This document shows positions 10,222 to 37,226 of a DNA stretch of 64,000 bases, piece by piece. The stretch is taken from positions 1,056,001-1,120,000 of the forward strand of contig JBHYGA010000001.1 of the NCBI GenBank assembly GCA_051859245.1. Reading direction: 5' to 3'. The stretch comes from Gemmatimonadaceae bacterium (GTDB lineage Bacteria; Gemmatimonadota; Gemmatimonadetes; Gemmatimonadales; Gemmatimonadaceae). The translations under genes were made by a program, and so were the position numbers. The notes under the pieces are model-generated. The model was not told the DNA's origin, did no database searches, and was given only the letters and a program-made list of their open reading frames with translations. Position 1 is the first letter of the stretch; the number at the start of each line of letters is the position of its first letter.

Positions 10222-11792
10222 AACCGCACCGCGCTCGCCAGCTCCCACGCGCGTGACATGCCGCTTGTTTGCGGCGACGTCAGAAGCTGCCCGGCCACCA
10301 GCTGCGGATAGATGTCGGCGTAGCTGCGAATTTCCATGGCGCTGACACGCTTCATGATAAACCAGGGCTTAAGCTCGCGGGGCTGCTGCAGTCCGGCGGC
10401 GCCCAACACTTCAAAAAAGCTCTTGACCGTTTCGCGATGATACCGCGCCACACGTTCTGACTTGTCGCCCACGTGCAGGCCGGCTTCGAGTGCGCGATCC
10501 TGCGTTGCGATGCCGGTGGGGCACTGATTGGTATTGCATCGCAGTGCCTGAATGCATCCGAGCGCAAACATCATGGCGCGTGCCGCGTGACAAATGTCGG
10601 CGCCAAGTGCGACCTTGGTGGCCATGGCAAATCCGGTGTTCACCTTGCCCGACGCGATAATGCGGATTCGCTCGCGCAGCTCAGCACCAACCAGCGCATT
10701 GTGCACAAACGAAAGCCCTTCATTCAGTGGCGTACCAACGGAGTCGGAGAACTCCAGCGGAGCGGCGCCGGTGCCACCCTCGCCACCGTCAACCGTAATG
10801 AAGTCCGGAGTGATTCCGGTTTCCATCATCGCTTTGACGATGCCGAGAAACTCATGACGCTTACCAACGCACAGTTTGAATCCAACCGGTTTGCCGCCAC
10901 TTGCCACACGCAACCGTTTGATGAAGTGCAGGAGTTCGGTTGGCGTAGCGAACGCGGTATGCGCCGGTGGAGAGATCACGTCAAATCCCGGTTCGACCCC
11001 GCGAATCTCGACAATCTCTGGCGTAAGCTTTGACGCCGGAAGAATACCGCCGTGACCGGGTTTCGCTCCCTGCGAAAGCTTGATCTCGATCATCTTCACG
11101 TTTGGCAGCGTCGCGCGCTTTGCAAACTCTGTTTCGCTGAACCGTCCTGACTTGTCGCGGCAGCTGAAGTATCCGGTGCCGATCTGCCAGATGATGTCGC
11201 CACCGGGTTGCAGATGATAGGGACTCAGTCCACCTTCGCCCGTATTGTGTGCGAAGTTGCCAAGCCTGGCGCCTGTGTTGAGTGCGAGTACGGCGTTACG
11301 ACTGAGTGAGCCATAACTCATGCCCGACACGTTGAAAACCGACGAGGAATAGGGCTGCGTGCAATCCGGTCCCCCAACCATCACGCGCGCGTGCTGGGGA
11401 TCCGGGTGCACCGGCATCAGCGAATGATTGATCCATTCGTAGCCAGTGGCGTACACATCCTTCTGCGTACCAAAGGGCAGCGTGTCCGTATCGCCCTTCG
11501 CTCGCTGATAGATGACCGAACGATCGTTGCGGCTGAACGGTCGACCATCGTGGTTTGACTCGACGAAATACTGATTGATTTCCGGACGTATCGCTTCAAA
11601 CAGATAGCGTGCGTGCCCAATGAGCGGAAAGTTGCGCTTGATGGCCTGTCTGGTTTGCACCATGTCGGCCACACCGCGCGCGATGAGCGGCAGCAGAATG
11701 ACCAGAGACCACAAAGCCGGCGGCCACACAAGGGACACGCCGGCCACGGACAGCAACAGGACCGCTGAAACGGCCACGAAGAGAGTGCGCAT
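10218..11792 (-). CDS. Stand-alone FMN-binding glutamate synthase family protein, membrane anchored
   Basis: SGMSYGSLS, NTGEGG, EIKLSQGAKPGHGG, DGGEGGTGA, CIQALRCNTNQCPTG (3Fe-4S); start placed at MRTLFV. Confidence 0.88.
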   Translation of the reverse strand: MRTLFVAVSAVLLLSVAGVSLVWPPALWSLVILLPLIARGVADMVQTRQAIKRNFPLIGHARYLFEAIRPEINQYFVESNHDGRPFSRNDRSVIYQRAKGDTDTLPFGTQKDVYATGYEWINHSLMPVHPDPQHARVMVGGPDCTQPYSSSVFNVSGMSYGSLSRNAVLALNTGARLGNFAHNTGEGGLSPYHLQPGGDIIWQIGTGYFSCRDKSGRFSETEFAKRATLPNVKMIEIKLSQGAKPGHGGILPASKLTPEIVEIRGVEPGFDVISPPAHTAFATPTELLHFIKRLRVASGGKPVGFKLCVGKRHEFLGIVKAMMETGITPDFITVDGGEGGTGAAPLEFSDSVGTPLNEGLSFVHNALVGAELRERIRIIASGKVNTGFAMATKVALGADICHAARAMMFALGCIQALRCNTNQCPTGIATQDRALEAGLHVGDKSERVARYHRETVKSFFEVLGAAGLQQPRELKPWFIMKRVSAMEIRSYADIYPQLVAGQLLTSPQTSGMSRAWELASAVRF

Positions 11793-11850
11793 GCGGTGAT
11801 AGTATCGGCCGCCTGCGTGAGGAGTTGAGTCGTCTCGCGCCGAACGGCTG

Positions 11851-13491
11851 CTACGATCCGCCTTTGGGTGCAACTACCCGCTGTACTGCCGCGAGACCTG
11901 CGTCCACGACAATCGCAAGCAGCGCTGCCGGAAGGGCTCCTGAGAGCACAAGCCGGCTATCTGCGAGGGCAAGTCCAGTGACAATCGGCTCACCAAGTCC
12001 GCCCGCACCAATGAACGCGGCCAGTGTTGCTGCACCCACCGTGATCACAGCCGCGGTGCGAATACCGCCGAGCACCGCCGTCGACGCAAGCGGCAGTTGC
12101 ACGCGCCACAATCGCTGCGCCTGCGTCATGCCGAGTGCTTCGCTGGCCGCAACCGCATCGGGGTCGGCGGTGGACACGCCGGTGTAGGTGGCGCGCACAA
12201 TCGGAAGCAAGGCGTACAGCCACAGTGCCACGAGTGCCGGTGTGGTGCCGATCCCGAAGAACGGCAGCATGAACGCCAACAGCGCAATCGACGGGATCGT
12301 CTGAAATACGCCGAGCATCTGCATCACGACGGACGCGATGCGTGGCCGCTGCGTGAGCGTAATGCCGAGTGGCAGTGCGATCAGGACGGCAGCAAGCATG
12401 GCGACCAGAACCAACATGCTATGCTGCAACAAGAGCCGCAGCGTTTCTGCGCGCCGGTTGAAAAAGAACGACCAGAACCCGTCTTGCTGCGATGTTGGTG
12501 TGACCGCCGATGATTCAGCGGTACTCGTTGCGCGCAGCAATCCCAGCTGCTGTAACGCCGCGCGCGCGACGTCGGGAATTGGCACGCGTTCCACTTCGAT
12601 CTGTCGATTCCATTCGCGCACCGACGGCTCCGACAGCCGACCGCTCAACTGCGACAACACACCCACGACCTCAGGACGCGTCTGCGCGATGCGCGGCGAC
12701 ACGATTGCCGCCGCGTCGTACGGTGGAAAGAAGTGACGGTCATCATCAAGCACCACCAGATCGTAGCGCGCCAGCAATCCATCGGTGGTGTAACCATCAA
12801 TCACATCCACGGAGCCGGCGGCGAGCGCTTCATATTTGACGGCTGGCGCAAGCGGTACGGCGGACTTGAGACGAAGACCATACGCGTCTGCCAGCCCGCT
12901 GAATCCATCCGAACGCCCAATGAAGTCACTCGTAAATCCGGCGGAGAGCGCGCGCCCTTCGCGCACAAGGTCGCTGATCGTTCGCAGTCGCAATCGCTCG
13001 GCGGATTCGCGGCGCACGGCAATGGCATATCCGTTGCTGAATCCAAGCGGCGGCAACCACTGCACGCCAAACTGTGCTTTGAACTGCTGCGCCACGTGCG
13101 CATAGAGCACGCGTGGATCTTCCCGCATGCGTGCCGTCGCCGTATCTCGCAGGACGGCAATCAAACCGGTGCCTGTGTATTCTGGATACACGTCAATTGC
13201 GTCCGATCGCAAGGCGCGGAATGCGACTTCTGTTGAGCCGAGTCCTGGCCGGCGCTGCACGACGAGACCATTCGCTTCCAGCAGTTGCGCGAACATTTCC
13301 GCCAGCAGATACGACTCGCCAAACGGTTTGGACGCAACGATCACGGCTTGAAGCGTAGGCGTTGCCGATATCGGAATATCGGCGGTGCGAGGCGACGCTG
13401 GCTGTGCGTGCGCGCCAGTGCAGGCGCAGAGCACGACGAGCAGGGACGTGATCGCGCGGGTCGCAAGAAGGCGGTGTACGCCGCGCGTCAT
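11851..13491 (-). CDS. Fused substrate-binding + permease subunit of an osmoprotectant (QAT) ABC importer; candidate ergothioneine importer
   Basis: N-terminal OpuBC/OsmF-like domain (YPEYTGT, YTTDG, FFPPY) then permease (QTIPSIALL, GAGGLG). Confidence 0.85.
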   Translation of the reverse strand: MTRGVHRLLATRAITSLLVVLCACTGAHAQPASPRTADIPISATPTLQAVIVASKPFGESYLLAEMFAQLLEANGLVVQRRPGLGSTEVAFRALRSDAIDVYPEYTGTGLIAVLRDTATARMREDPRVLYAHVAQQFKAQFGVQWLPPLGFSNGYAIAVRRESAERLRLRTISDLVREGRALSAGFTSDFIGRSDGFSGLADAYGLRLKSAVPLAPAVKYEALAAGSVDVIDGYTTDGLLARYDLVVLDDDRHFFPPYDAAAIVSPRIAQTRPEVVGVLSQLSGRLSEPSVREWNRQIEVERVPIPDVARAALQQLGLLRATSTAESSAVTPTSQQDGFWSFFFNRRAETLRLLLQHSMLVLVAMLAAVLIALPLGITLTQRPRIASVVMQMLGVFQTIPSIALLAFMLPFFGIGTTPALVALWLYALLPIVRATYTGVSTADPDAVAASEALGMTQAQRLWRVQLPLASTAVLGGIRTAAVITVGAATLAAFIGAGGLGEPIVTGLALADSRLVLSGALPAALLAIVVDAGLAAVQRVVAPKGGS

Positions 13492-14355: not shown

Positions 14356-15618
14356 ATGACCGTTGCCCGTCTCGACGCCACAGCTCTCTCACTCGCGGAA
14401 CGATATCGAAGCGTCCGAGAGGCAACGGTGGCGCTCTGTGTTCCGCTGGAAACCGAGGACTTTGTTGTTTCCAGCATGGACGACGTGAGCCCGACCAAGT
14501 GGCACCTCGCGCACACGAGTTGGTTTTTTGAGACCTTTGTGCTCGCGCCATTCATGGCATCGTACGTGGCGCGCCATCCGCGTTACGCGTTTCTCTTCAA
14601 CTCATACTATGTGCAGGCGGGCGAGCGACATTGCCGAGCCCAGCGTGGATTGGTCACACGCCCGACGGTGAGTGAGGTGTTCGAATATCGTCGCTACGTG
14701 GATGAGGCCGTCTTGTCGTTGTGCGATTCCATCGGAGACGATACGAATCACCCCGCATGGCACGTGCTGGAGCTGGGGCTCCATCATGAACAGCAACATC
14801 AGGAGCTGTTGCTCACTGATATCAAGCACGTGTTCTGGACGAATCCGATGCGCCCGGTGTATCACGACGCGCCGCTTCCGGTCCCGCCGTCCGTTGTTCA
14901 GGATTGGCAGGCGATCAGCGAAGGTGTGTACGACATCGGTCACGACGGCGCACAGTTTGCGTTCGACAATGAAGGACCGCGTCATCGCACATACGTGCAG
15001 TCAGCAAAGCTGGCCACGCGCTTGATCACCAACGCAGAGTACGCGCAGTTCATTGCCGACGGCGGGTATCGACAGCCGGCGCTCTGGCTCAGCGCGGGGT
15101 GGAGCACGGTGCAGTTGGAGAAGTGGGTCGCTCCGTTATACTGGGAGTTGCGCGATGGCAGTTGGCACGAGTTTACGCTGCGTGGTGACGGTCCAATCAA
15201 TGCCACGGCACCAGTCACGCACCTGAGCTATTTCGAAGCCGACGCGTTCGCTCGATGGGCCGGTGCGCGTTTGCCAACGGAAGCCGAATGGGAGCTGATC
15301 GCACGAACGCATGCGGTCAGCGGACGATTCGTGGAAGAGCGCATGTGGCATCCGGGGGCAGCTGTCGGCAGTGGCATGCAGCAGCTATTCGGCGACGTGT
15401 GGCAGTGGACGCAAAGTCCGTACGTCGCATATCCCGGATTTCGGCCGTCTGCAGGAGCGATCGGCGAATACAACGGGAAGTTCATGTGCGACCAGTGGGT
15501 ATTGCGCGGTGCTTCGTGCGCAACGCCTCGCTCGCACGCGCGGGCGACATATCGCAACTTTTTCCCCAGTGACGCACGCTGGCAGTTCTCGGGTATTCGA
15601 CTGGCGGCGGACGCATGA
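14356..15618 (+). CDS. egtB: Ergothioneine biosynthesis sulfoxide synthase
   Basis: SPTKWHLAHT, FNSYY, HHEQQHQELL iron ligands, FGE-sulfatase domain (RLPTEAEWE, EYNGKFM, RATYRNFF); followed by egtD. Confidence 0.9.
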   Translation: MTVARLDATALSLAERYRSVREATVALCVPLETEDFVVSSMDDVSPTKWHLAHTSWFFETFVLAPFMASYVARHPRYAFLFNSYYVQAGERHCRAQRGLVTRPTVSEVFEYRRYVDEAVLSLCDSIGDDTNHPAWHVLELGLHHEQQHQELLLTDIKHVFWTNPMRPVYHDAPLPVPPSVVQDWQAISEGVYDIGHDGAQFAFDNEGPRHRTYVQSAKLATRLITNAEYAQFIADGGYRQPALWLSAGWSTVQLEKWVAPLYWELRDGSWHEFTLRGDGPINATAPVTHLSYFEADAFARWAGARLPTEAEWELIARTHAVSGRFVEERMWHPGAAVGSGMQQLFGDVWQWTQSPYVAYPGFRPSAGAIGEYNGKFMCDQWVLRGASCATPRSHARATYRNFFPSDARWQFSGIRLAADA

Positions 15619-16592
15619 CGCGAGCTGCGACGAACAATCTGTCGCTTCGGCACACCACGCCACGATCCGCATTCTCTCCGTCGCTCACGGCGACGGTCAT
15701 TCGTGGGCTCACGGACAGCGTCAAGACGCTGCCAGCGGTGCTGTTCTACGATGCGAAGGGAGCTCGCCTGTTTGAGGAAATCTGCGAGCAGCCGGAGTAC
15801 TATCCCACGCGCACCGAAATCGAGATTCTCACACGTCATGCGCCTAATCTCGCGCAGCACGCGGGGGCTCACGCCGCGCTGATTGAATATGGGAGTGGCG
15901 CAGGTGTGAAGGTGCGTTATCTGCTCGACGCGTTGCGGGATCCGGCAGCGTACATCCCGGTCGACGTGTCGCAGGAACAGCTGGTGCACGTGGCACGGGA
16001 ACGGGGACGACAGTACCCGGGATTACGCATTGCGCCTGTATGTGCAGACTACACCTTGCCGTTCGATCTGCCTGCGCTGCCCGTCGAGACACGACGCGTT
16101 GCGTTCTTCCCAGGCTCGACGATCGGCAATTTTCACCCCACGGAAGCGGCGGCCTTTCTGCACCGCATTCGCCATACCGTTGGCCCCAAGGGTGGCTTGA
16201 TCCTCGGCGTTGATCGGCGGAAAGACTTCCGTGTACTGCACGAGGCGTACAACGATCGTGCAGGCGTGACCGCGGCGTTCAACCTGAACATGTTGGCGCA
16301 TCTCAATCAGGCAATGAACGCCAACTTCGATCTGACCCAGTTCCGGCACGTGGCGTTCTTCAACAACGAAGCCAGCCGCATCGAGATGCATCTGGAATCG
16401 CTGGTCGAGCAGGAGGTGGTGGTGAACGACACGCTCGTGTACTTCGACGCTGGCGAAACGGTGCAGACGGAGTGCTCCTACAAATACGACGAGCAGACGC
16501 TGCGCGCATTGGTGGAGAGCAGCGGGTTCACCATTGACACGCTGTATTCGGATGACAACGACTGGTTCTACGTGGCGTGGCTCCGGCCATAA
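15615..16592 (+). CDS. egtD: L-histidine N-alpha-trimethyltransferase
   Basis: LFEEIC..PEYYPTRTE, IEYGSG, FPGSTIGNF, AYNDRAGVTAAFN, RIEMHL, TECSYKY. Confidence 0.92.
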   Translation: MTRAATNNLSLRHTTPRSAFSPSLTATVIRGLTDSVKTLPAVLFYDAKGARLFEEICEQPEYYPTRTEIEILTRHAPNLAQHAGAHAALIEYGSGAGVKVRYLLDALRDPAAYIPVDVSQEQLVHVARERGRQYPGLRIAPVCADYTLPFDLPALPVETRRVAFFPGSTIGNFHPTEAAAFLHRIRHTVGPKGGLILGVDRRKDFRVLHEAYNDRAGVTAAFNLNMLAHLNQAMNANFDLTQFRHVAFFNNEASRIEMHLESLVEQEVVVNDTLVYFDAGETVQTECSYKYDEQTLRALVESSGFTIDTLYSDDNDWFYVAWLRP

Positions 16593-18380: not shown

Positions 18381-19217
18381 CTAGCGTGATCCATCCGGCG
18401 GCGTCTCCCGCCGGTACTCTACACCGAGCACACGTACGAGCTGCACCACGTCTGCAGCAGGCCAGCGCTCACCGTTGCTCGGTCGATTGTACCACCACGC
18501 CGCGGCCGTTGAATCCGGCATGACAATCAACGGCGATACTTCACGAAACGACGAGAATCCCTCAAGCCGCGCCGGTCCCTCGCGCGTACTCGCCACCAGC
18601 GAGAACTCAACGCGCTGCAGCACGCTCGTTGTCGAATCAAGCGTGACGGTGCCGCTCCAATCGGGCCAGCGTACGGCGTCGCTTGGTGCGAAGCCAAGGC
18701 GCACCTGCGCGCGACCGCTCGCGAAGGACGACGAGACACCGGTGACACAGTGATACGACCAGAATTCGGGATCGCCGAGTGTCTCAACGAAGAGGATCTG
18801 CGCGGAGAATCCGCCGCATGTGCCGGTGCGAACCACGTCGTACGGCTTGTATCGGTCGCCCCATCGCTCTGAGTTCGTGCGTTCCTCGTGGCGTGTCTCT
18901 CTCGGCGGTCGCGTGGGTCCATCGTGCTTCGAGGTGCGGGGCTCGGTCTGCACACGAAATGGGTACGCCCGCCGGAACGAGCCGTAGCGCTCAGCGCCTT
19001 CGCGAAGTTGCAGCAGTGCCCAGTAGGCAAGAGGCGCTTGCTCCGGAGCGATTGCGGGGCAGCCTCGCGCTTCGGTAATCGCCACCGTGGGAAGGTCCAG
19101 GGCGACGACTTTGATTGCCGTCCGTACGATCACAACGAGGGATTGCGACTGCGCGGCGAGTTGTGGTGCGCCTGCGAATAAGAACAGAGCGGACAGGGCC
19201 AGACATTTCACCACCAT
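18381..19217 (-). CDS. Exported hypothetical protein
   Basis: Signal-peptide-like N-terminus; start overlaps the stop of the upstream YdeI-like gene. Confidence 0.55.
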   Translation of the reverse strand: MVVKCLALSALFLFAGAPQLAAQSQSLVVIVRTAIKVVALDLPTVAITEARGCPAIAPEQAPLAYWALLQLREGAERYGSFRRAYPFRVQTEPRTSKHDGPTRPPRETRHEERTNSERWGDRYKPYDVVRTGTCGGFSAQILFVETLGDPEFWSYHCVTGVSSSFASGRAQVRLGFAPSDAVRWPDWSGTVTLDSTTSVLQRVEFSLVASTREGPARLEGFSSFREVSPLIVMPDSTAAAWWYNRPSNGERWPAADVVQLVRVLGVEYRRETPPDGSR

Positions 19218-19849
19218 TAACCACCTTTCGACGTCACCGGATGGATGGTCTCCCCACGCGCGAGCATTGCGACCAACTCGGCAATTTTCAGCGCGCGGCG
19301 TGCAGGTGTGGTCGCGGTCTCCACGCGAAACAGAATCGCATAGCGGTTGTCGCGCTTCAGCTGCTCAAACGCCGCGAGGGCCACCGGGTTCGCATTGAGT
19401 GCCTGCTGCAAGTCGTCTGGAACCGAACTCTTACTCGACGACGAATATGCGCGGTCCCACCGACCGTCGGACTTGGCGGCCTCAACCGCTGCCAATCCCG
19501 CGGGTTGCATTACACCGCTCGCGATCAAACGCTCCACATGTCCAACGTTCACTTTGGACCAGATGCTGCGCGGCCCGCGTGGCGTGAACTTGATCAGGTA
19601 TGACGCGTCATCGTATCGCTTGAGCTGGCCATCGATCCAGCCGTAGCAGAGCGCGATATCCAGCGCTTCGGCGTACTTCATAGTCGTGTATGCCGCCGCT
19701 TTCTTGGCAAAGCGTAGCCAAACTCCGCGCGCCGTCGTGTGCTGTGCATGCAGCCACACCTGCCACTCCTCAGGCGACGCAAACATCAGCGTTGGATACT
19801 CGGCGCGCGAGGAGCTTTGCGAGGCAGACGCGGTGGATTTTTTCATCAT
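19217..19849 (-). CDS. YdeI/OmpD-associated family protein
   Basis: ALCYGWIDG, FTPRGPRSIWSKVN, VPDDLQQAL. Confidence 0.88.
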   Translation of the reverse strand: MMKKSTASASQSSSRAEYPTLMFASPEEWQVWLHAQHTTARGVWLRFAKKAAAYTTMKYAEALDIALCYGWIDGQLKRYDDASYLIKFTPRGPRSIWSKVNVGHVERLIASGVMQPAGLAAVEAAKSDGRWDRAYSSSSKSSVPDDLQQALNANPVALAAFEQLKRDNRYAILFRVETATTPARRALKIAELVAMLARGETIHPVTSKGG

Positions 19850-19991
19850 GTCTCTGGAGTCAAGTCAACTGAACGCGATTGCGTCAGTGTTTCCCTGACA
19901 CTTCTAGAGGGAGACGCTGGTGTCGTTGTGTGGATCGTCCCGTCATACTGACCGGAGGACATGCCATCGTCAAGAACGGGAGGATCTGCAG

Positions 19992-20252
19992 ATGTTCGAC
20001 TTCACGGAACAGGTGGCGCTTGCCGAAACTCCGCAGCCCCTGGGCTGGACACGCGTAGCACTCACCACGGTCGGTACGCTGCTCGTGTTGATCGCGTGTT
20101 TCTTCTATGTGCCACATTGGTTGCTGACGCAGCTTGATGCCGTGGCCCGAGGTGTTCGCGTGTGGTTGGCGACTGCATGGATGGCGATGGCGTTTGCACT
20201 CTCCTGTGTCGCCGCGCTGCGAACGACACGAAACCCAGCCCGCGGCAGATGA
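19992..20252 (+). CDS. Small two-TM membrane protein, first gene of the flavoprotein-Rieske/cyt b operon
   Basis: GGAGG upstream of ATG 19992; two hydrophobic segments. Confidence 0.6.
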   Translation: MFDFTEQVALAETPQPLGWTRVALTTVGTLLVLIACFFYVPHWLLTQLDAVARGVRVWLATAWMAMAFALSCVAALRTTRNPARGR

Positions 20253-20270
20253 TGTCCTTGTTCAGCAGCG

Positions 20271-22181
20271 ATGCGTGCTGACATGCGTACTGATCAGCGT
20301 GACGATGCGCATATGATCCGCCCGACCTCCGACTTTGGCGCAACAATGCAGGGCACGCCCGCACCGTGTCGCGCGGCGTGCCCGGTTGGAACAGACGCGG
20401 CGGCCTACGTTGCACTGCTCGCCGAAGGACGCATTACTGATGCGTATGATGTCGCGCGGCAGCACAATCCGTTTCCCTCCGTGTGTGGTCGGGTATGCTC
20501 CGCGCCTTGTGAACGCTCCTGTCGTCGAAGTGTGATCGACTCGGCAGTGTCGATCCGTGCGCTGAAACGCGTGTTGTGCGATGTATACGGAGCGGAGCGC
20601 GGTGATACCTCTCGGTGGATGCAGGGCGTACGTTCCGTGCCGCCCATCAGCCGTGAGTCGGTGGGCATCATTGGTGCCGGTCCGGCAGGATTGGCCGCAG
20701 CGCATGATCTTCGCGTTGCCGGACACGCCGTGACTATCTACGAAGCGATGGAGTACGCTGGCGGCATGATGCGCTACGGCATTCCCGCGTTTCGACTTCC
20801 ACGCGAAATGATCGACGCGGAAATCGCGGCGATCATCTCGCTCGGAGTTGAACTGCGATTGAGTTGCCGTATCGGACGTGATGTCACCTTCAACGCGCTG
20901 TTGCAGCGGCACGCGGCCGTACTCGTTACGATCGGCTGTCAGCAAGGGCGACAACTTCGCGCGCCTGGCTCCGACCTGCCCGGCGTGGTGCGCTCCGTTG
21001 ACTTTCTACGCGCTGAAAATGCACGCGTCGAAGGAAAACCGGCGTCGGTGTCGCTCCTTGGTGACGGTGCGGTGGTGGTGATCGGTGGCGGCAGTGTGGC
21101 GTTCGACGCCGCGCGTAGCGCCTGGCGTGCCAGTGCGATGACCGCGTACGATGGCCAGACGGCTGTTGACGTCGCGCGCAGCGCACGACGTGCCGAGCAG
21201 TCGGGAGTGGTACGCGATGTCACGATGGTCGCGCCAGAGCAACGTGCCGCACTGCCAGTTCCCGTCGAAGAACTGCACGAGGCCACGGTTGAAGGCGTCA
21301 CACTGCGCGATGGATTTGGCGTCGTTCGCATCGTTGGCGAGTCGGCAGTTACGGGCGTGGAGATCGCGCCCGTGCAGCGACTGTTCGACGAGACTGGTCG
21401 ATTCGCGCCGGTACTTGACGAAGCGCGCAGTACCGTGCTGCCCGCACGCACGGTCGTGCTGGCAATCGGGCAGCAATCAGACAGCGGATTTTTGTCGGAC
21501 ACGCCAGACGTGCAGCTCACTGGCTGGGGCGGCCTGGTGGTGGACGCTGATCTGCGCTCCACGCACCCGCGCGTGTGGGCCGCTGGTGATGCGGCATCTG
21601 GTCCCCGTGATTTGATTGACGCCATCGCTGCAGGACAGCGCGCCGCTCTCTCCATCGTGCGCACGTTTGGCGTGGCGTCTGTGACTGCCCAAGAGGAGCC
21701 CACGGATCTGCGAGCGCGTCGCCGAGCGATCCATGTGCCGAGCGTATACACCGCACCAGCGCTCGCCACGAACACGCGGTTCTGGAGTCGATACGACGAC
21801 GTTACACGCGCACCGCTTCCTGTACTGCAACCCACGGCGCGCGACGCTTCCACAGAAGTTGAGACTGTGCTCGCACCGGACGACGCGCGTATCGAAGCAG
21901 CCCGCTGCCTTCGCTGCGATGAACACATGCAGTTCGCTGCTCGGCGCTGCATCGCCTGTGCGCTCTGTGTGGACGTCTGTCCACAATCATCGCTGGCGCT
22001 GCTCCCCGCTGGTGATCGCGGACTCGCACTGGTTTTTGACGACCAGACATGTATCCGGTGCGGACTCTGCGTACATCGCTGCCCTACGGATGCCTTGATG
22101 TTTACACTCGCACCGACAGATCGAATGCCCGTTCTTGCGGACCTCGCGTCAGAATTGTCACGGACGACGGCACATGGCTGA
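20271..22181 (+). CDS. GltD/NfnB/DsrL-like NAD(P)-dependent Fe-S flavoprotein with C-terminal 2x[4Fe-4S] ferredoxin
   Basis: PCRAACP..CGRVCSAPCERSC; IIGAGPAGL; VIGGGSVAFDAAR; EAARCLRC; CIACALCVDVCP and CIRCGLCVHRCP; start may be at 20313. Confidence 0.85.
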   Translation: MRADMRTDQRDDAHMIRPTSDFGATMQGTPAPCRAACPVGTDAAAYVALLAEGRITDAYDVARQHNPFPSVCGRVCSAPCERSCRRSVIDSAVSIRALKRVLCDVYGAERGDTSRWMQGVRSVPPISRESVGIIGAGPAGLAAAHDLRVAGHAVTIYEAMEYAGGMMRYGIPAFRLPREMIDAEIAAIISLGVELRLSCRIGRDVTFNALLQRHAAVLVTIGCQQGRQLRAPGSDLPGVVRSVDFLRAENARVEGKPASVSLLGDGAVVVIGGGSVAFDAARSAWRASAMTAYDGQTAVDVARSARRAEQSGVVRDVTMVAPEQRAALPVPVEELHEATVEGVTLRDGFGVVRIVGESAVTGVEIAPVQRLFDETGRFAPVLDEARSTVLPARTVVLAIGQQSDSGFLSDTPDVQLTGWGGLVVDADLRSTHPRVWAAGDAASGPRDLIDAIAAGQRAALSIVRTFGVASVTAQEEPTDLRARRRAIHVPSVYTAPALATNTRFWSRYDDVTRAPLPVLQPTARDASTEVETVLAPDDARIEAARCLRCDEHMQFAARRCIACALCVDVCPQSSLALLPAGDRGLALVFDDQTCIRCGLCVHRCPTDALMFTLAPTDRMPVLADLASELSRTTAHG

Positions 22182-23481
22182 ATCTGACCATCGGAATCGA
22201 CGCGCCGACGGTTGGCTGAAGCGCGCGCAGGAGACAACGATCTATCGATCGGTTGTCCGAACGCCGTCGCTGGATTCGCCGCGTGGCCGTGCGCAACGGG
22301 CGTTCGGGAATGTGTTCCTGCACGTCTATCCAGTGCGGGTGCCGAGAGCGCTGCTGAAGTTCCGATCCACGTGGCGTCTGGGATTCATCTCAACGGTGCT
22401 CTTCGCGATTTTGCTGATCACCGGTGTATACCTGATGTTCTTTTATACGCCGGCCGTCACAATGGCGTATGGAGACATGCAGGTGTTGCGCTCGCAAGTT
22501 GGTTTCGGGCAGCTCATCCGTAACGTGCATCGATGGGGTGCGCACCTCATGGTGCTCGCCGTCGTGTTTCATTTGGTGCGTGTGTTCATTGACGGTGGAT
22601 ACAAAGCGCCGAGGCAGTTCAACTGGGTCATCGGTGTTGGACTGTTGGTTGTCACCTTGGCGTATTCGTTTACCGGCTACTTGCTGCCGTGGGACCAGCT
22701 CGCGTATTGGGCGGTCACCGTTGGTTCAGACCTTGTGCAGTACGCGCCTGGTATTGGTCCGTGGATGCGCAACTTCCTGCTCGGCGGAAGCACCATTGGG
22801 CAGGCGGCATTGCTTCGCTTCTACGTGATTCACGTGGCCGTGCTCACGGCGGCATTCTTCGCGCTCATGGCGGTTCATCTGTGGCGCTTGCGAAAGGATG
22901 GGCTTGTTGTTGGCGATCCGCCGCACGCGCGCGATATCACCAAGCGTGTTACTGAAGGAAACGCGGATACGTCGCCGACCCAATGGCTGCCCGATGGCCG
23001 CCGAGTGTTGGGTGTCGTGGAGCTGGAAGGAACGCCCGCGCACGCGCGCGATCCCGAAGATGAAGTGTTCTCGTGGCCGCACCTGTTTGTGCGTCACCAG
23101 GTAATTGCGCTCGCGGTCTGTGCGCTGGTACTGGCACTTGGTGTCGCGTTTGAAGCGCCGCTGCGTGAACTGGCCAATCCCAACCTTACACCGGAGCCAG
23201 CCAAGGCCCCGTGGTATTTCGTGGGACTGCAAGAATTGCTGGCGCACTTTGATCCGCTGGTGGCGGGTGTGTTGGTGCCGGGCGTTTTGATTGCGGCGCT
23301 GGTGGCGTTGCCCTACATCGACCGCAATCCTTCACGTAGTCCACAGGATCGACGAGTTGCGCTCGCACTGTTTCTGTCGCTGTTCATCGCACTCGTGATT
23401 CTCACGATTATCGGCGCACTGTTTCGCGGACCCGGCTGGGCTTTTGTCTTGCCGTGGGAACACTTGTATTTCGAACCGTAA
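22174..23481 (+). CDS. Cytochrome b of a Rieske/cyt b complex (b6-like part fused to subunit-IV-like part)
   Basis: [43 protein letters not shown], Qo motif KAPWYF. Confidence 0.9.
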
Positions 23482-23494
23482 TGCAGGAGCAGAC

Positions 23495-23986
23495 ATGAGT
23501 CCGACACGCCGGGAGATGCTGGAAGCCGGATGGAAGGTGGGCAGCGGGCTGCTCGTGGCCGCAGCCGGCTGGACAACGTTCGAAGCGCTGAAGCCGCTGG
23601 CCGATGTGTCAGGCGGTGGCGCCGTGACGTTGCTGGAGCCGGATGCCTACGCGGAAGGCTCGGTAACGTACGTGCGTGAGGGTCGTTTTTTTGTTACGCG
23701 CGCGAAGAACGAGTTGTTCGCCGTCTCGCAGAAGTGCCCGCATCTGGGGTGTGCCGTGCCGTTCTGTGAGGAATCCGGGCGGTTCCAGTGCCCCTGTCAT
23801 GGCTCAGTGTATAACGTGGCCGGTGAATGGATCAGCGGGCCTGCACCGCGAGGCATGGATCGGCATCCGCTGCTCATTGCTGATGGACGCGTCGTGGTGA
23901 ACACCGCCGTGCTCGAGCAAGGTCCACCTTTGGGTTCATTGAAGTACGATACGCCGTCGCGCGGCGGGAGCTGCGAGCCGACGTGA
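23495..23986 (+). CDS. Rieske [2Fe-2S] protein
   Basis: Tat-like [33 protein letters not shown] before ATG 23495. Confidence 0.92.
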
Positions 23987-24480
23987 CGCCTGCTCCACTC
24001 GATACTCCGGAAGAATCGCGCGCGCTCGATCGGTATTACATCGTTGGCCTGATATGTATGCTGATCCTGATCGTCGCGTTTCCGCTGTACAAATATGGCG
24101 AACCCGCGCGTCGTGAACGCACGCAGGACGCCATGCGGGAAGAGAACATTGCGATCGGTGGCGCGATGTTTGCGCAGCACTGCGCCGCGTGTCACGGCGA
24201 CAACGCTTCGGGAGGGCGCGGCTTTCCCACGCTCGGCTCCAAGGAGTTCCTGGCGTCGGTAAGTGACAAGCAGTTGCAGTGGCTGATCTCGGGCGGTGTG
24301 CCGGGCTCGGCCATGACAGCTTACGATATGGATCTTGGTGGGCCGTTCACTGCTCAGGAGATCCTGCGCATCGTGACGTATCTTCGTTCGCTCGAGAAGG
24401 ACGCGCCGTCCGTGCCGGGTTGGTACAAGGGAGCGCCGGCGACATCGACCGCCGTGTCCGCACGCGACGAACTGCGCTAG
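23983..24480 (+). CDS. Membrane-anchored monoheme cytochrome c
   Basis: TM helix, CAACH, distal Met in GSAMTAY; start overlaps the Rieske stop. Confidence 0.88.
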
Positions 24481-24496: not shown

Positions 24497-25108
24497 CTAG
24501 GAGAGGCGAACTGCGTAGCGGCAGCAGCAGCCACCACTCGCGGCGCTGTCTACCTGCGTGACGCGTGTGCCGGGGCGAACGAGCGTATCGAGCAACCGCT
24601 CGAACGTGCCGGTATAGAAGTCGCACACCGGTGCGCTCAGCGTGAGGCCTCGACAGAGCGGACAGTCACGAATGGCAAAGGTTGGTGTTGACGCCGCTCG
24701 GAAAACGAACGCGCCACTGCCAGCAAACGTCCATGCATGCTGCGCCATGGCGCGCGCGAGCAGTCGCAGTGCGGCGCGCGCGGGCAGTGCGCGGAGCAGC
24801 CATTGCACCGGCCGAGGAATCCGATGATCCAGCAGATACAGTGCGGTGCGATCGCCCGATTCACGCAATAACTCGCGAGTGCGCGTTGCGCCAAGCTGCT
24901 CAAGGCAGAGCACCAGCAGATCGTGCACCTCGCCTTCATCCACCATGTGTGAAGGCAACTCATCCAGCGTTCGCCCCGTCGCGCGATGCAACAGGTCTGC
25001 AGCGAGCGGTGTGCCATATCGCTCCTGCAGCACGGCGACGGTCTGAATGATGGCATTGGGGCCAATACGACCGTGCGTGGTTACGCGTTCATGGGTGGTG
25101 GCGGTCAT
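24497..25108 (-). CDS. bchJ: BchJ (V4R-domain bacteriochlorophyll biosynthesis protein)
   Basis: GRIGPNAIIQ, YLLDHRIP, HAWTFAGSG, CPLC..VCDFY..FERL..CCCRY. Confidence 0.88.
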   Translation of the reverse strand: MTATTHERVTTHGRIGPNAIIQTVAVLQERYGTPLAADLLHRATGRTLDELPSHMVDEGEVHDLLVLCLEQLGATRTRELLRESGDRTALYLLDHRIPRPVQWLLRALPARAALRLLARAMAQHAWTFAGSGAFVFRAASTPTFAIRDCPLCRGLTLSAPVCDFYTGTFERLLDTLVRPGTRVTQVDSAASGGCCCRYAVRLS

Positions 25109-26472
25109 TACACAATGCGTGAGAGGCGTTGCGGCTCAAACGCAGAGAACGAATCTCTTTCGGGATGCAGCGCGCTCACGAGCGACGAAAGGAAATAGCG
25201 ACCGGTGGGTGTGACCGTGATCATGCGCTCACCAATCATCACGAGGCCGTCTGCCTCGAACTGCTGGAACGACTGCATGATGCGTCCCCCGTTGTCTGGG
25301 AGTGCGTCTCGGCGCAGCGCCAGTGTGGTGGTCAGCGCCCGAATCGCGCTGCGTCTTGTCCGATCATCGTCCGTGAGTCGATGTCCGCGCGCAAAGGGAA
25401 GCCGTCCGTTGTCCACGGCACGCTGCCAGTCCGTCAGTGCACACTCGTTCTGGACCAGCACACCTCCAACCTCGCTGATCGCGCTCACGCCGCCGCCTAC
25501 GAACGAGCGCGAACGGCTCGCTGTGTATCCCATGTGGTCACGATGGAGCTGTCCAGTTGCAGCCGCCATGAACAGCGCGTCCTCAGGCTTTGCAAAAAGT
25601 TCGGGCCCTATCCACAGGTACCCGGCTTCTGTGAGCCGCCGTACCGCGAGTTGATACAGCGCAAAGCGCGCGGTGCAATCCGGGAGTGTGGCTTCATCAA
25701 TCCGACGTTGATGCGGAAGCAACCATGGGGTGTGTACATACCCGCGACACGTGACGCGATCCGGCGCAAGCTCGATGACGGCGTCGATCGTATCGCCCAG
25801 GCTCGCGGTGGTTTGGTGTGGCAAGCCAAAGAGCACATCCAGGCTCAGCGACTGGAATCCCTGCTCACGCGCGCGCTCAACGACGTCGGTGATCAGGGCG
25901 ATCGATTGCACACGTCCGATGGCGTGCTGCACGAGGGGATCAAGATCCTGCACGCCGAAGCGGAGCTGGTTGAATCCCAGGCCGCGCAGCCAGCGCAACT
26001 GCGTGGTGGTCACCAACCGCGGATCCGCCTCGACGGAGCATTCGACGTTCGACGACAGCGCGAACCGTTCGGCCACAAGATCAAACACCCGTACCAACTG
26101 ACCATCGGCGAGAAAGTTTGGTGTGCCGCCGCCCCAGTGCATCTCGCGTACCACCGGTTCGCCGCCCATCACGGAATGCAGCAGCTCGAGCTCTGTTTCG
26201 AGGCGCGTGATGTATTCGGTCACTTCATCACGGTGTGTGTTCACCGTAGCGTGAGAGTCGCAGTACAGACAGCGCAGCGCGCAAAACGGAAGGTGCAGCT
26301 GCACGGACAGATCGCCGCTGACGGTACTCAGGGCGTCGCAATACTCGCGATAGGTGACATCGCCGTTCCAGTCATTGACAGTGGGATACGTGCCAATGCC
26401 TGCGCTGCTTCCACCGTATTTGGCCAGCAACGACGACGTGATCGGGCGCGAAGACATTGAGGTCTGGGCCAT
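25108..26472 (-). CDS. Second, diverged HemN-family radical SAM protein
   Basis: HLPFCALRCLYC, HWGGGTPN, FGVQD retained; RYTSYPT and RNFxGY altered; TAATG overlap with bchJ; alternative GTG start at 26478. Confidence 0.8.
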   Translation of the reverse strand: MAQTSMSSRPITSSLLAKYGGSSAGIGTYPTVNDWNGDVTYREYCDALSTVSGDLSVQLHLPFCALRCLYCDSHATVNTHRDEVTEYITRLETELELLHSVMGGEPVVREMHWGGGTPNFLADGQLVRVFDLVAERFALSSNVECSVEADPRLVTTTQLRWLRGLGFNQLRFGVQDLDPLVQHAIGRVQSIALITDVVERAREQGFQSLSLDVLFGLPHQTTASLGDTIDAVIELAPDRVTCRGYVHTPWLLPHQRRIDEATLPDCTARFALYQLAVRRLTEAGYLWIGPELFAKPEDALFMAAATGQLHRDHMGYTASRSRSFVGGGVSAISEVGGVLVQNECALTDWQRAVDNGRLPFARGHRLTDDDRTRRSAIRALTTTLALRRDALPDNGGRIMQSFQQFEADGLVMIGERMITVTPTGRYFLSSLVSALHPERDSFSAFEPQRLSRIV

Positions 26473-26745
26473 GCCCACCGAGACTGCTGCGTGGCGCCGT
26501 GCTCTCGGTATGCCACCGTTGTGACCATGGCAGACCGTCCCGTGGCGCCTGAGGGATCGGTCTGCGTCGACCGTACCTCAAGTGTACGGTCGGTCGAGCA
26601 GGTGAGGATCCGGCAGACGGCGTACAGCGGCGTCGGGGGAAGCCCGACCGTCCTTCGATGCGGTGCTCGGAACGGGCGCCGCACCGAGAGCGTTGCGTGC
26701 GCGTACGTGACGGTCTACGTGGCATGATTCCTCAAGGAGCCCTGA

Positions 26746-31512: not shown

Positions 31513-33882
31513 GTGCGCATCCTTGTTGTTGGCGGCGGTCCTGGTGGTCTCTACGCGGCGCTGCTGCTCAAGCGCCGACATCCCAAGGCCCACATCACGG
31601 TTACTGAGCGCAACTCGCGCGACAGCACGTTTGGTTGGGGCGTCGTTCTCTCGGATCAAACGGTTGCCAACCTGCGCGACGCTGATCCACCGAGCGCGGA
31701 TCGCATCGCCGCCGCGCTGCATCGCTGGGATGACATCGAGATTCATTTTGGCGGCCAGACCATTCGATCTGGTGGCCATGGCTTCAGCGGCATTGGCCGC
31801 CTCGAATTGCTGCGCATTCTGCAGGAGCGATGCCTCGAGCTCGGCGTAGCGCTCGAGTTTCGCGCCGAAACGTCGCCAGACCTTGAATCGGTCATCGCAC
31901 GCGACGGCATCGATCTGGTGATCGCCGCCGATGGCATCAACAGTCGTATTCGCGAGCGGTACGAAGGCACATTCAAACCCGATGTGGACCTTCGGGAATG
32001 CCGGTACGTGTGGCTCGGAACGCCTCGGCAGTTCAATGCCTTCACGTTCGCGTTTGCGGAAACACCGTTTGGCTGGTTCCAGGCGCACGCGTATCAGTTT
32101 GATCAAGGCATGAGCACGTTTATCGTGGAGACGCCGCAACACGTGTGGGAAGCGGCGGGTCTCGATGCCATGGAGTCCGAAGCCGCGATCGGGTTCTGCG
32201 AACAGTTGTTCGCACCACAACTTGGCGGTGCGCCGCTGGTGAGTAACGCAACACATCTGCGCGGCTCAGCCCAATGGATTCGTTTCCCACGGATCACGTG
32301 CGCAGAATGGGTGCACTGGTTGCACGCGGAGTCGCGTGATGTCCCCGTAGTCCTGCTCGGCGACGCGGCGCACACCGCACACTTTTCCATTGGTTCGGGA
32401 ACCAAGCTGGCACTCGAAGACGCGATGGCGCTGGACGCGGCGATCGCCAGTGGCACGAGCACCATGCAACACGCGCTGGCCGCGTACCAGGCCGATCGCA
32501 GTGTTGAAGTGCTCAAACTGCAGAACGCCGCGCGCAACTCGACCGAATGGTTCGAGCACGTACACCGCTACGCCTCGCTCGCGCCTGAACAGTTCGCATA
32601 CTCCCTGCTCACACGGTCGCAGCGCATATCGCACGAGAATTTGCGAGAGCGCGACGCCGACTACGTGGCCGCGTTTGAGCTGTGGTTCGCGGAGCGTGCG
32701 GGACTTGCCCCAGCGGTCAACGCACCACCCGCGTTGCTCACGCCGTTCACCGTGCGCGGCCTCACGTTGCCCAATCGCGTGGTCGTGTCGCCAATGGCGC
32801 AGTACTCGGCGCACACCGACGGCCGTCCAAGCGATTGGCACTTTGTGCATCTCGGCGCGCGTGCAAGTGGAGGTGCCGCACTCGTCATGACAGAAATGAC
32901 CTGCGTGGCACCAGACGCGCGCATTACACCCTGGTGCCCCGGACTCTGGAACAACGCGCACGAGAGTGAGTGGGCGCGCATTGTGCGCTACGTGCACGAG
33001 TACACTCCTGCGCGCATTGGCTTGCAGCTCGGCCACGCGGGCGCAAAAGGCGCCACGAAGAAGATGTGGGAAGGAGTAGACGAACCGTTGCCCGAGGGTG
33101 AATGGCCGCTGATGGCGCCTTCGGAAACTCAATATCTGCCCGGCGTCTCGCAAACCGCGCGGGAGATGACCGCGGCTGACATGACGCTGGTGCTCTCACA
33201 ATTCGTGGAGAGCACGCTCCGTGCCGCACGCGCCGGTTTTGATTGGTTGGAGTTGCACTGTGCGCATGGCTATCTGCTGTCCGCGTTTCTTTCGCCACTC
33301 ACCAACCATCGAACCGACGCGTATGGCGGCACGATCGATGCACGCGCCAGGTTCCCGCTTGAGGTTTTTCGCGCCATGCGTGAGGTCTGGCCCGCAGAAC
33401 GTCCAATGTCCATACGCATTTCAGCACACGACTGGGCCGAAGGCGGTAATACTGCGGATGACGCCGTACATATCGCCCGACTGTTCAAGAACGCCGGCGC
33501 AGACATGATTGATGTCTCGGCCGGGCAGGTGGTGAAACACGAACGACCGGTATTCGGACGCATGTGGCAAACCCCCTTCTCGGATCGTGTACGACAGGAG
33601 GCAGGCATTGCCACCATTGCGGTGGGCGCCATCACCGACGCCGATCAGGCCACGGGTATCATCGCGTCCGGACGTGCGGACCTTGTCGCAATCGGTCGGC
33701 CGCATCTGGTGAACCCTGCATGGACGCTTACTGAGGCCGTGCGCGCGGGCTACATCGGTGCCGAGGCGTTGTGGCCGCCGCAGTATCGGGCCGGCAAATC
33801 GCAGCTTGAGCGTTTGATGCTACGCGAGCGTGCTGAGCGTGCTGCGGCGCAGGATCAACCGCCACGCGGTGAGCTGACATGA
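31513..33882 (+). CDS. abmA: Bifunctional 2-aminobenzoyl-CoA monooxygenase/reductase (salicylyl-CoA 5-hydroxylase family)
   Basis: GGGPGGLY, TFGWGVV, GDAAHTAHFSIGSGTKLA fused to an Old Yellow Enzyme domain (VSPMAQYS, LHCAHGYLL). Confidence 0.88.
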   Translation: MRILVVGGGPGGLYAALLLKRRHPKAHITVTERNSRDSTFGWGVVLSDQTVANLRDADPPSADRIAAALHRWDDIEIHFGGQTIRSGGHGFSGIGRLELLRILQERCLELGVALEFRAETSPDLESVIARDGIDLVIAADGINSRIRERYEGTFKPDVDLRECRYVWLGTPRQFNAFTFAFAETPFGWFQAHAYQFDQGMSTFIVETPQHVWEAAGLDAMESEAAIGFCEQLFAPQLGGAPLVSNATHLRGSAQWIRFPRITCAEWVHWLHAESRDVPVVLLGDAAHTAHFSIGSGTKLALEDAMALDAAIASGTSTMQHALAAYQADRSVEVLKLQNAARNSTEWFEHVHRYASLAPEQFAYSLLTRSQRISHENLRERDADYVAAFELWFAERAGLAPAVNAPPALLTPFTVRGLTLPNRVVVSPMAQYSAHTDGRPSDWHFVHLGARASGGAALVMTEMTCVAPDARITPWCPGLWNNAHESEWARIVRYVHEYTPARIGLQLGHAGAKGATKKMWEGVDEPLPEGEWPLMAPSETQYLPGVSQTAREMTAADMTLVLSQFVESTLRAARAGFDWLELHCAHGYLLSAFLSPLTNHRTDAYGGTIDARARFPLEVFRAMREVWPAERPMSIRISAHDWAEGGNTADDAVHIARLFKNAGADMIDVSAGQVVKHERPVFGRMWQTPFSDRVRQEAGIATIAVGAITDADQATGIIASGRADLVAIGRPHLVNPAWTLTEAVRAGYIGAEALWPPQYRAGKSQLERLMLRERAERAAAQDQPPRGELT

Positions 33883-34667
33883 ATGAAGCAACGATTGCCA
33901 CTCGCGCGCTCTCAGCACGACACGCACTCGTCACGGGGGCGAATCGTGGCATTGGTGCGGCAACGGCGCGTGCGTTGTCGGGTGCCGGGGCAGACGTCAC
34001 GCTCATGGTGCGGGATCGCAGCGGAGGTGAAGCGCTTGCGCGCACGCTCAAGGGACGCACACACATCGTGCTTGCCGACGTGACCGATCATGACGCCGTG
34101 CGTGCGGCGGTTTCGGAAGCCAACGCGGCGTTTGGTCCGGTAGATATCCTCGTGAACAATGCCGGCTCCGTGCAGGCCACGCCTTTTCTTCGCGCGACTC
34201 CTTTGCTATTCGAGGAGATGTTTGCCGTGCATGTGCTCGGCGCGGTCGTTACGTCGCAGGCGGTGCTCTCGGATATGGTCAAGCGCGGATTCGGGCGCAT
34301 TATCAACGTTGCCAGCATTGCGGGTCTTGAAGGAGCACCGTACGTCGCGCACTACGTGGCCGCCAAGCACGCACTCGTTGGTCTCACGCGCGCGCTGGCT
34401 GCGGAGTACGCAAGCAAACAGGTCACCGTAAACGCCGTCTGCCCAGGCTACACACAAACCGACCTGGTCAGCGAATCAGTGCAACGCATTGTGGGCAAGA
34501 CGGGGCGTTCGCCGGAAGACGCGTTGCACGCCATGCTCGCCGAGGCGGGACAGTCTCGATTGGTTACTGTGCAGGAAGTCGCCGCTGCGATTGTTGCCCT
34601 CTGTCTGCCTGCTGCAAGTGAGCGCACGGGGGAATGTGTTGTGCTTCTGGGAGAGGAGTCAACATGA
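33879..34667 (+). CDS. SDR family oxidoreductase
   Basis: TGANRGIG, NNAG, YVAAK. Confidence 0.9.
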   Translation: MNEATIATRALSARHALVTGANRGIGAATARALSGAGADVTLMVRDRSGGEALARTLKGRTHIVLADVTDHDAVRAAVSEANAAFGPVDILVNNAGSVQATPFLRATPLLFEEMFAVHVLGAVVTSQAVLSDMVKRGFGRIINVASIAGLEGAPYVAHYVAAKHALVGLTRALAAEYASKQVTVNAVCPGYTQTDLVSESVQRIVGKTGRSPEDALHAMLAEAGQSRLVTVQEVAAAIVALCLPAASERTGECVVLLGEEST

Positions 34668-36015: not shown

Positions 36016-36017
36016 TC

Positions 36018-37211: not shown

Positions 37212-37226
37212 ACAAACGGAACATCG

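Follow-up and report, generated by a model that had tools for sequence, protein, structure and literature searches.

The five-gene operon

We analyzed a 64,000-nucleotide stretch of the genome of a Gemmatimonadaceae bacterium, a light harvester of soil/freshwater type (GenBank assembly GCA_051859245.1, contig JBHYGA010000001.1, positions 1,056,001 to 1,120,000 of the forward strand), called here the window and numbered from its first letter. Five genes on its + strand, at 19992-24480, form an operon encoding, in order, a small protein with two transmembrane (TM) helices, an Fe-S flavoprotein, cytochrome b (cyt b), a Rieske protein, and a cytochrome c (cyt c). The operon very probably encodes a real flavoprotein-bearing complex, and comparison of related sequences supports the view that the flavoprotein is specifically dedicated to a non-canonical Rieske/cyt b complex.

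An earlier interpretation made from the DNA letters, termed here the sequence-only reading, had described five tightly packed same-strand genes and a flavoprotein stop codon overlapping the cyt b start. All five genes are indeed present on one strand, and the overlap is 8 nt long, formed by the cyt b ATG and the flavoprotein TGA (ATGGCTGA). The range given in that reading holds the operon genes as described but, starting at 20271, omits the small gene at 19992-20252. The remaining intervals are 18 nt between the small gene and the flavoprotein gene, 13 nt between cyt b and Rieske, and -4 nt between Rieske and cyt c, the last of which starts with a GTG overlapping the Rieske stop. Four of the five genes are named by Pfam or NCBIfam; the small TM protein has no family in either. 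The features of the locus are:

19850-19991, no strand: divergent intergenic region, presumably holding the promoter, that separates the operon from an OmdA-family gene (- strand, 19217-19849)
19992-20252, + strand: small membrane subunit, 86 aa from the ATG, two predicted TM helices by hydropathy; the open reading frame (ORF) is open from a GTG at 19920
20271-22181, + strand: Fe-S flavoprotein, 636 aa, GltD/NfnB-like core plus C-terminal 2x[4Fe-4S] ferredoxin domain (Pfam/NCBIfam)
22174-23481, + strand: cyt b, with b6-like four-helix and subunit-IV-like three-helix parts fused in one chain (PF00033, E 3.9e-43; PF00032, E 4.3e-12)
23495-23986, + strand: Rieske [2Fe-2S] protein with a twin-arginine signal/anchor (PF00355, E 3.1e-11)
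23983-24480, + strand: membrane-anchored monohaem cyt c (PF00034, E 1e-7; PF13442, E 2.1e-7)

At its 3' end, the operon faces a convergent bchJ gene (TIGR02019, 198 bits, cut-off 74) and a hemN-type gene (TIGR00538, 346 bits, cut-off 325), the cyt c gene ending 17 nt from the bchJ stop on the opposite strand. A promoter scan returned no promoter-like site inside the operon block (1.1 expected), and terminator-like sites are not in excess there (4 vs 5.0 expected); the sigma-70 consensus was not found in the upstream region 19850-19991. The five genes resemble their neighbors in composition and thus carry no compositional sign of recent transfer. Gene calling based on GC content at third codon positions (GC3) lost real genes.

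Conservation of the flavoprotein/cyt b pairing

Linked clusters occur in two gene orders: type A, as in the window, reads flavoprotein-cyt b-Rieske-cyt c, and type B reads flavoprotein-Rieske-cyt b6-subunit IV-multihaem c. Among 151 genomes of the phylum, near-full-length relatives of the flavoprotein adjoin cyt b in two type-A genomes (G000, G103) and in three type-B genomes of a distant family (G022, G017, G008), and the same adjacency is seen at loci L002 and L003. A metagenome scan yielded 80 loci, 50 of which were evaluable, with at least 600 bp beyond the flavoprotein gene. The sequence-only reading had hinged on the pairing being kept across genomes, and it is conserved: in 48 of these 50 loci (15 type A and 33 type B), cyt b or Rieske starts no more than 600 bp downstream of the flavoprotein, the exceptions being L140 and L142. 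Going by heuristic start calls, the 8-nt overlap with cyt b recurs in 9 of 17 type-A loci.

The flavoproteins were also placed in a tree of 79 rows, built by a quick method with a midpoint root after 7 rows had been dropped (three same-place duplicates and four fragments). It separates 60 rows with Rieske/cyt b or unknown context from 19 unlinked Gemmatimonadota paralogues with 99% SH-aLRT support, and the type-A flavoproteins form a clade with 100% support. Of the phylogeny that had been proposed earlier, this tree covers the comparison of linked with unlinked flavoproteins, the former being a clade of their own; it includes no anammox sequences. Taken together, the conserved adjacency, the separate clade, and the translational overlap favor the earlier proposal of a non-canonical Rieske/cyt b complex with a flavoprotein partner.

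The same evidence bears on the simplest alternative, namely that the flavoprotein is a soluble enzyme merely co-transcribed with the membrane genes and not bound to their products. We regard this as highly improbable: the adjacency has been preserved across two gene orders and several phyla, the linked proteins form their own clade, and stop and start codons overlap. In addition, all subunits of the Kuenenia stuttgartiensis complexes discussed below co-migrate, according to PMC12954380 citing its ref. 9.

Several of the related loci have features of their own. A sister type-A clade includes P0095, a protein assigned by its source name to an Ilumatobacteraceae metagenome-assembled genome (MAG) and 75% identical to L091; F420-related genes neighbor the clusters of this clade, whose taxonomy rests on these genes and that one source name. 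A cupredoxin gene (plastocyanin/azurin/sulfocyanin-like) lies on the same strand just upstream of the small-subunit gene in L089, L091, L098, and L164 but not L093, i.e., in four of the five non-Gemmatimonadaceae type-A loci with an annotated upstream flank; it is absent in the window. Upstream of the type-B clusters L081, L083, and L084 (G022, G008, and G017, respectively) are genes for a sigma-54 two-component pair, a protein of 420-460 aa that has no family, and a CarboxypepD_reg-domain protein; the last two recur in the metagenome loci L145 and L157. In L082 (G022:C10:8000-19596), the order flavoprotein-Rieske-cyt b6-subunit IV-multihaem c is followed by same-strand genes for a cbb3-type oxidase (COX1, FixO). 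L085 (G022:C103:1-16000) is the third flavoprotein-Rieske-cyt b cluster of one genome; it is headed by an Rrf2 regulator, its cyt b is 573 aa long, and it also holds genes for MobA, a 900-aa multihaem cytochrome, a 922-aa molybdopterin oxidoreductase, and an Fe-S protein.

Fold and nucleotide signature of the flavoprotein

The flavoprotein combines Fer4_20 (residues 30-105, E 4.7e-16), Pyr_redox_2 (131-455, E 1.9e-22), and a Fer4_7 dicluster domain (559-608, E 5.3e-10). It carries the hallmarks of GltD and NfnB, i.e., a two-cluster Fer4_20 domain, an FAD-binding GxGxxG (GAGPAG at 135), and a second GGGxxAxDxAR motif (GGGSVA at 272), together with two CxxCxxCxxxCP motifs (560-570 and 594-604). 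In an alignment of 62 flavoproteins, the cysteines of the four [4Fe-4S] motifs and the GGG-VA-D-AR motif are invariant. A further CxxC pair (546/549), also invariant, precedes both dicluster motifs and aligns with the C-x-x-C-x-C of NfnA and of the 9bov_A chain. The database copy of the protein is 632 aa long, starting at 20283.

An AlphaFold 2 model (pLDDT 87.6, pTM 0.89) returned 9bov_A, 8oh5_C, and 9n5u_A as top Foldseek matches, followed by the NfnI large subunit and GltD (E 2.5e-44 to 1.8e-31). Similarly, a sequence profile searched against PDB sequences gave E values from 6e-117 to 1.6e-79, with 9n5u_A the best (E 6e-117). Every NCBIfam match of the flavoprotein fell under its cut-off, the best being NF009410 with 416.5 bits vs 516.

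The nucleotide-binding site sets the linked flavoproteins apart. The NfnABC/StnABC chains 9n5u_A, 8oh5_C, and 9bov_A have a YRR motif after strand beta-2, whose Arg pair we take to hold the 2'-phosphate of NADPH, and R[RK] occupies this site in 19 of 19 unlinked Gemmatimonadota paralogues. A Glu is found there in 64 of 64 linked flavoproteins (the window reads APE) and in none of the 19 unlinked ones; in the window protein, a 25-residue insert stands ahead of strand beta-2. Because Glu replaces the NADPH-type Arg pair in all linked flavoproteins, the nucleotide is likely NAD(H) rather than NADP(H). The sequence-only reading had proposed a link to NAD(P)(H); a nucleotide-binding Fe-S flavoprotein is confirmed, and the nucleotide can be narrowed to a probable NAD(H). 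The Glu-for-Arg exchange also offers an easy way to recognize all members of the linked clade from their sequence, and predicts NAD(H) as opposed to NADP(H).

The membrane core

The cyt b of the window has four haem-ligand histidines (119, 133, 220, and 235), all conserved, with the 15-residue spacing in helix D that is typical of b6-type proteins. Its nearest solved sequence is cyanobacterial b6 (2zt9_A, E 1.1e-56), ahead of bc1 cyt b (E 8.8e-44). The b6 motif YCLGG aligns to fRLGF, leaving no Cys for haem cn, and the quinol-site P-E-W-Y motif reads APWY, without the Glu, invariantly in 16 type-A cyt b. Matches to the ExtP/ExtQ b-type cytochromes stay under their cut-offs (NF040969, 248.3 bits vs 290; NF040970, 65.7 vs 150).

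Three further histidines (50, 124, and 308) are invariant in type-A cyt b. His50 lies within a conserved cytoplasmic N-terminal LHxxP motif, found by regular expression in 19 of 19 evaluable type-A, 37 of 38 type-B, and 4 of 18 unlinked cyt b; the single type-B miss, L101, reads VLHIQP. AlphaFold 3 models of the Kuenenia complex place an extra haem b between N-terminal His43 and His62 at the dimer interface, beside the first Fe-S cluster (PMC12954380). By position, His50 is possibly the counterpart of this extra-haem ligand.

The Rieske protein has a TRREML twin-arginine motif and the cluster motifs CPHLGC...CPCHGS, and carries Ser and Tyr at both positions that correlate with a high midpoint potential. 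This pair has been linked to +300-350 mV (PMC3509893), and the same rule is given in PMC12954380. The cyt c has one N-terminal TM helix and one CAACH motif at 67. It is monohaem in the window, in G103, and in eight metagenome loci, with lengths of 165-176 aa in the window and G103; the closest relatives, L079 (G238), L080 (G256), L002, and L003, have dihaem proteins of 281-297 aa with two CxxCH motifs.

A small ORF of 75-100 aa encoding two helices lies directly upstream of the flavoprotein gene in the window and in L003, L091, L079, and L080; of 19 other type-A loci, 18 have it as well. Alignment of 20 of these sequences reveals conserved W, R, R, and AT positions, and the resulting profile matched 224 representative clusters at E<=1e-3 and 124 at E<=1e-10, nearly all 60-115 aa in length. 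By these sequence criteria, the small subunit is a real gene family and a hallmark of type A. Its His was considered as a haem ligand and rejected, the residue being N, Q, or D in most non-Gemmatimonadaceae copies.

Respiratory context of the host

The host genome (4.70 Mb, 11 contigs) has its closest public loci in Gemmatimonas/Gemmatimonadales MAGs and encodes the type-II reaction centre (pufL/pufM) on another contig. NDH-1 is encoded (NuoD), and the operon cyt b is the sole PF00033 match. The sequence-only reading had raised the question of a separate complex III in the genome: a complete cluster resembling alternative complex III (ACIII) is present, comprising a multihaem c, an Mo/Fe-S subunit, an NrfD-like subunit, ActD, and a cyt c, with no second cyt b. 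No second GltD-like protein was found in the host genome at E<=1e-20. The host quinone is taken to be menaquinone, since Gemmatimonas phototrophica contains MQ8 and some MQ9 (PMC8849296), and since Gemmatimonadota have men genes and incomplete sets of ubiquinone genes (PMC9426454).

These findings bear on a conservative interpretation, in which the complex is an ordinary quinol:cyt c reductase running a Q cycle and the flavoprotein plays a side role, such as guarding against over-reduction of the b haems, redox sensing, or assembly. The four haem histidines, the Rieske protein, and cyt c are all intact, and in the host, as in G191, G238, and G256, there is no cyt b other than the type-A one. 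However, ACIII is available for the usual work of complex III, and cyt b is missing altogether from G159, a genome of this family with a reaction centre. Furthermore, at 636 aa, and with its four invariant cluster motifs and its sites for FAD and a nucleotide, the flavoprotein would make a costly sensor. We consider this interpretation quite improbable.

Relationship to phototrophy

The sequence-only reading had taken the adjacency to bchJ as a hint of low-oxygen phototrophic use, a suggestion that the relatives do not bear out: the bchJ neighborhood is kept in none of the five with enough flanking sequence. As a functional clue, the bchJ/hemN adjacency was rejected, being absent from L002, L003, L078, L079, and L080, where the other flanking genes of the window do not recur either. 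Likewise, PpsR-type TGT-N12-ACA sites are not enriched (11 matches in the window vs 12.8 expected), and none falls in 19850-19991.

The distribution of the cluster provides other grounds. A flavoprotein orthologue (E<=1e-90) was found in 5 of 151 Gemmatimonadaceae genomes and reaction-centre genes in 16; all five carriers are among those 16, and none of the 135 genomes without a reaction centre carries the orthologue. G103 is a sixth carrier in the family with reaction-centre genes, making six of six, and the Gemmatimonadaceae carriers span four genus-level groups. One reaction-centre genome, G136, has another cyt b type. Within the family, this tie of the cluster to reaction-centre genomes is suggestive, as a count uncorrected for relatedness. 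The tie does not hold beyond the family: reaction-centre genes are lacking in the three type-B carriers, and the sister type-A clade includes P0095, which its source assigns to Ilumatobacteraceae. A link between the operon and phototrophy, on grounds other than bchJ adjacency, is thus possible.

Two pairs of - strand pigment genes lie in the window, away from the main photosynthesis gene cluster: hemN (TIGR00538, 468 bits) with bchE (TIGR02026, 792 bits) at 1709-4803, and bchJ with the second hemN-type gene at 24497-26478. Both pairs represent oxygen-independent radical-SAM routes, which is odd in an aerobic phototroph.

A proposed model for electron transfer

For the working of the complex, we infer the docking, the electron path, and its direction as follows. 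Cyt b, Rieske, anchored cyt c, and the small two-TM subunit would form a menaquinol-oxidizing, b6-type core, with the NAD(H)-binding flavoprotein docked at its cytoplasmic, negative side to give one membrane complex. Quinol oxidation at the positive side would separate two electrons. The first would pass over Rieske and cyt c to the photo-oxidized reaction centre or a terminal oxidase; the second would cross the membrane over the two b haems, and possibly a further haem held by the invariant His50, to the C-terminal 2x[4Fe-4S] domain, the two Fer4_20 clusters, FAD, and finally NAD+. With MKH2 and MK denoting menaquinol and menaquinone, the net reaction would be:

2 MKH2 + 2 cyt c(ox) + NAD+ -> 2 MK + 2 cyt c(red) + NADH

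By simple arithmetic on textbook potentials, the cyt c and NAD couples average out near the potential of menaquinone, and the reaction would therefore be expected to be nearly reversible, with light or O2 keeping cyt c oxidized and pulling it towards NADH. We hold this quinone-based bifurcation, from menaquinol to cyt c and NAD+, tentatively, at a little short of an even chance.

Two considerations speak for the direction towards NAD+. First, a mismatch between the high-potential Rieske and menaquinone was measured in Kuenenia and argued to favor NAD(P)+ reduction (PMC12954380); the window pairs a Ser/Tyr Rieske with a menaquinone pool, i.e., it has the same mismatch, which we count for quinol-to-NAD+ transfer. 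Second, the host already has proton-pumping NDH-1 and ACIII, and so could manage simple NADH oxidation and the usual task of complex III without this complex.

Several points weigh against bifurcation towards NADH. To our knowledge, experiments on such complexes have been confined to anammox bacteria, with none on direction. The NAD(H) signature fits NADH equally well as a donor, and a photoheterotroph readily makes NADH from organic substrates, which leaves the benefit doubtful. The Cys of haem cn (CxGG) is absent from all 57 linked cyt b examined, a difficulty for electron passage between haem bN and the first Fe-S cluster. Finally, the Ser/Tyr pair is not general among type-A Rieske proteins, occurring in 7 of 16, five of the six from Gemmatimonadaceae among them; the other nine have Ser/Phe.

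The reverse assignment makes NADH the donor. Electrons would run from the flavoprotein through the Fe-S wire to the negative-side haem(s), there reducing menaquinone at a negative-side site or priming a Q cycle. Such a complex would serve as a redox valve or as an NADH:quinone (or NADH:cyt c) route without proton pumping, disposing of surplus NADH under light or when oxygen is high. This direction is downhill without special haem potentials, and NAD(H) enzymes typically have a Glu at the nucleotide site, as do all 64 linked proteins. In many bacteria, NDH-1 co-exists with NADH dehydrogenases that do not pump protons, which adds to the plausibility of such a route. A further parallel is chloroplast b6f, which binds ferredoxin:NADP+ reductase (FNR) on the same side (PMC5600118). 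However, the route would waste energy given NDH-1, an argument also made for Kuenenia (PMC12954380), and it accounts neither for the tie of the flavoprotein to a full high-potential Rieske/cyt c branch in 48 of 50 loci nor for a high-potential Ser/Tyr Rieske on a menaquinone pool. On balance, NADH as the donor appears unlikely, if a serious contender.

Bifurcation from menaquinol could also be extended to a role in phototrophy, with the complex serving as a non-cyclic outlet for the type-II reaction centre. Light would keep cyt c oxidized and the quinone pool reduced, and every second menaquinol electron would be lifted to NAD+, yielding light-driven NADH without spending proton-motive force. 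If true, this NADH source would differ from reverse electron flow through NDH-1, and it would account for the finding of the cluster, among Gemmatimonadaceae, in reaction-centre genomes only. We deem this extension rather improbable.

Other genes in the window

Elsewhere, the window encodes the ergothioneine genes egtB/egtD (14356-16592, +), a DASH-family cryptochrome (48825-50324, +), and a salicylyl-CoA 5-hydroxylase with enoyl-CoA hydratase, acyl-CoA dehydrogenase, and benzoate-CoA-ligase-family genes (31513-38873, +). A 551-aa protein at 10218-11873 (- strand) matches only the central part of the glutamate synthase large subunit (E 6.4e-42), far under the cut-off.

Comparison with known systems

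Anammox bacteria are reportedly the source of Rieske/cyt b complexes with an NAD(P) oxidoreductase, described in papers by Kartal and de Almeida that PMC12954380 and PMC5600118 cite. The sequence-only reading had likened the operon to the anammox clusters, aptly so (PMC12954380, PMC5600118). Compared by published description, the Kuenenia stuttgartiensis clusters Kuste4569-4574 and Kustd1480-1485 share with the window a Rieske protein, a cyt b of b6 type, and an NAD(P) oxidoreductase on the cytoplasmic side that contains an Fe-S chain. Also common to both are a menaquinone pool with a high-potential Ser/Tyr Rieske, a flavoprotein whose nearest structure is NfnABC (9bp5 there and 9bov_A here, from the same sequence set), and an N-terminal cyt b His located where an extra haem ligand is proposed (PMC12954380). 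Unlike in Kuenenia, where a CxGG haem cn site, split cyt b6 and subunit IV, and multihaem cyt c are found, cyt b and subunit IV are fused here, without the haem cn Cys, and the subunit IV part has three helices instead of five. Moreover, a monohaem cyt c replaces the hexa- and octahaem cytochromes, there is no HAO-like partner, a small two-TM subunit is added, and the host is an aerobic phototroph without an anammoxosome.

A second group of relatives is cyt b subfamily G (DAMO_0768, Acid_3505), which has a helix C-D block in common with the window cyt b (PMC5600118). According to that paper (Dibrova et al. 2017), similar oxidoreductase genes are found close to genes of this type 'in many other cases', and a short cyt b/subunit IV fusion accompanies the loss of CxGG. 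The sole Gemmatimonadota entry found there, GAU_0696, is another cyt b type, and the available parts of PMC5600118 make no mention of the small subunit, of the Glu signature, or of a tie to reaction-centre genomes. Literature searches returned no paper on this cluster in Gemmatimonadota, the supplements of PMC5600118 being covered by word only (its Fig. S1 may show related clusters); the accessible text of PMC9426454 treats complex III in the phylum without the word Rieske.

As for the flavoprotein, Bfu-type NfnABC/StnABC (9bov_A, 9n5u_A, 8oh5_C) and the NfnI large subunit/GltD have the same fold, with Fer4_20, FAD, and nucleotide domains. NfnABC/StnABC are soluble, use NADPH via YRR, and have other partner domains, whereas the linked protein has Glu, a 25-residue insert, and a membrane cyt b as partner. 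Cytochrome b6f with bound FNR likewise has a core of b6 type to whose negative side a nucleotide-linked flavoprotein is attached (PMC5600118), although FNR has an unrelated fold, lacks Fe-S clusters, and is not encoded with the complex. Unlike canonical b6f and bc1, the present operon includes the flavoprotein gene, and its cyt c is of the class I types PF00034/PF13442, not cyt f or c1.

Direct formation of NAD(P)H from quinol has been proposed for flavoprotein-bearing Rieske/cyt b complexes since about 2011-2013, a proposal that rests on anammox bacteria, which are slow, anaerobic, and hard to manipulate. The variant described here is the simplest in this analysis, with five genes, one haem c, and no multihaem or HAO partner, in aerobic phototrophs; the related complete single-contig genome G103 also carries it. 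If a cultured carrier exists, light- or oxygen-driven membranes would give a direct readout of NAD+ reduction and make a long-standing question testable. In summary, complexes of this kind have already been published, as anammox complexes and cyt b subfamily G clusters, and are known mainly from anammox bacteria; what is new is a distinct variant without haem cn and with a conserved small subunit, which occurs in Gemmatimonadaceae only in reaction-centre genomes (six of six).

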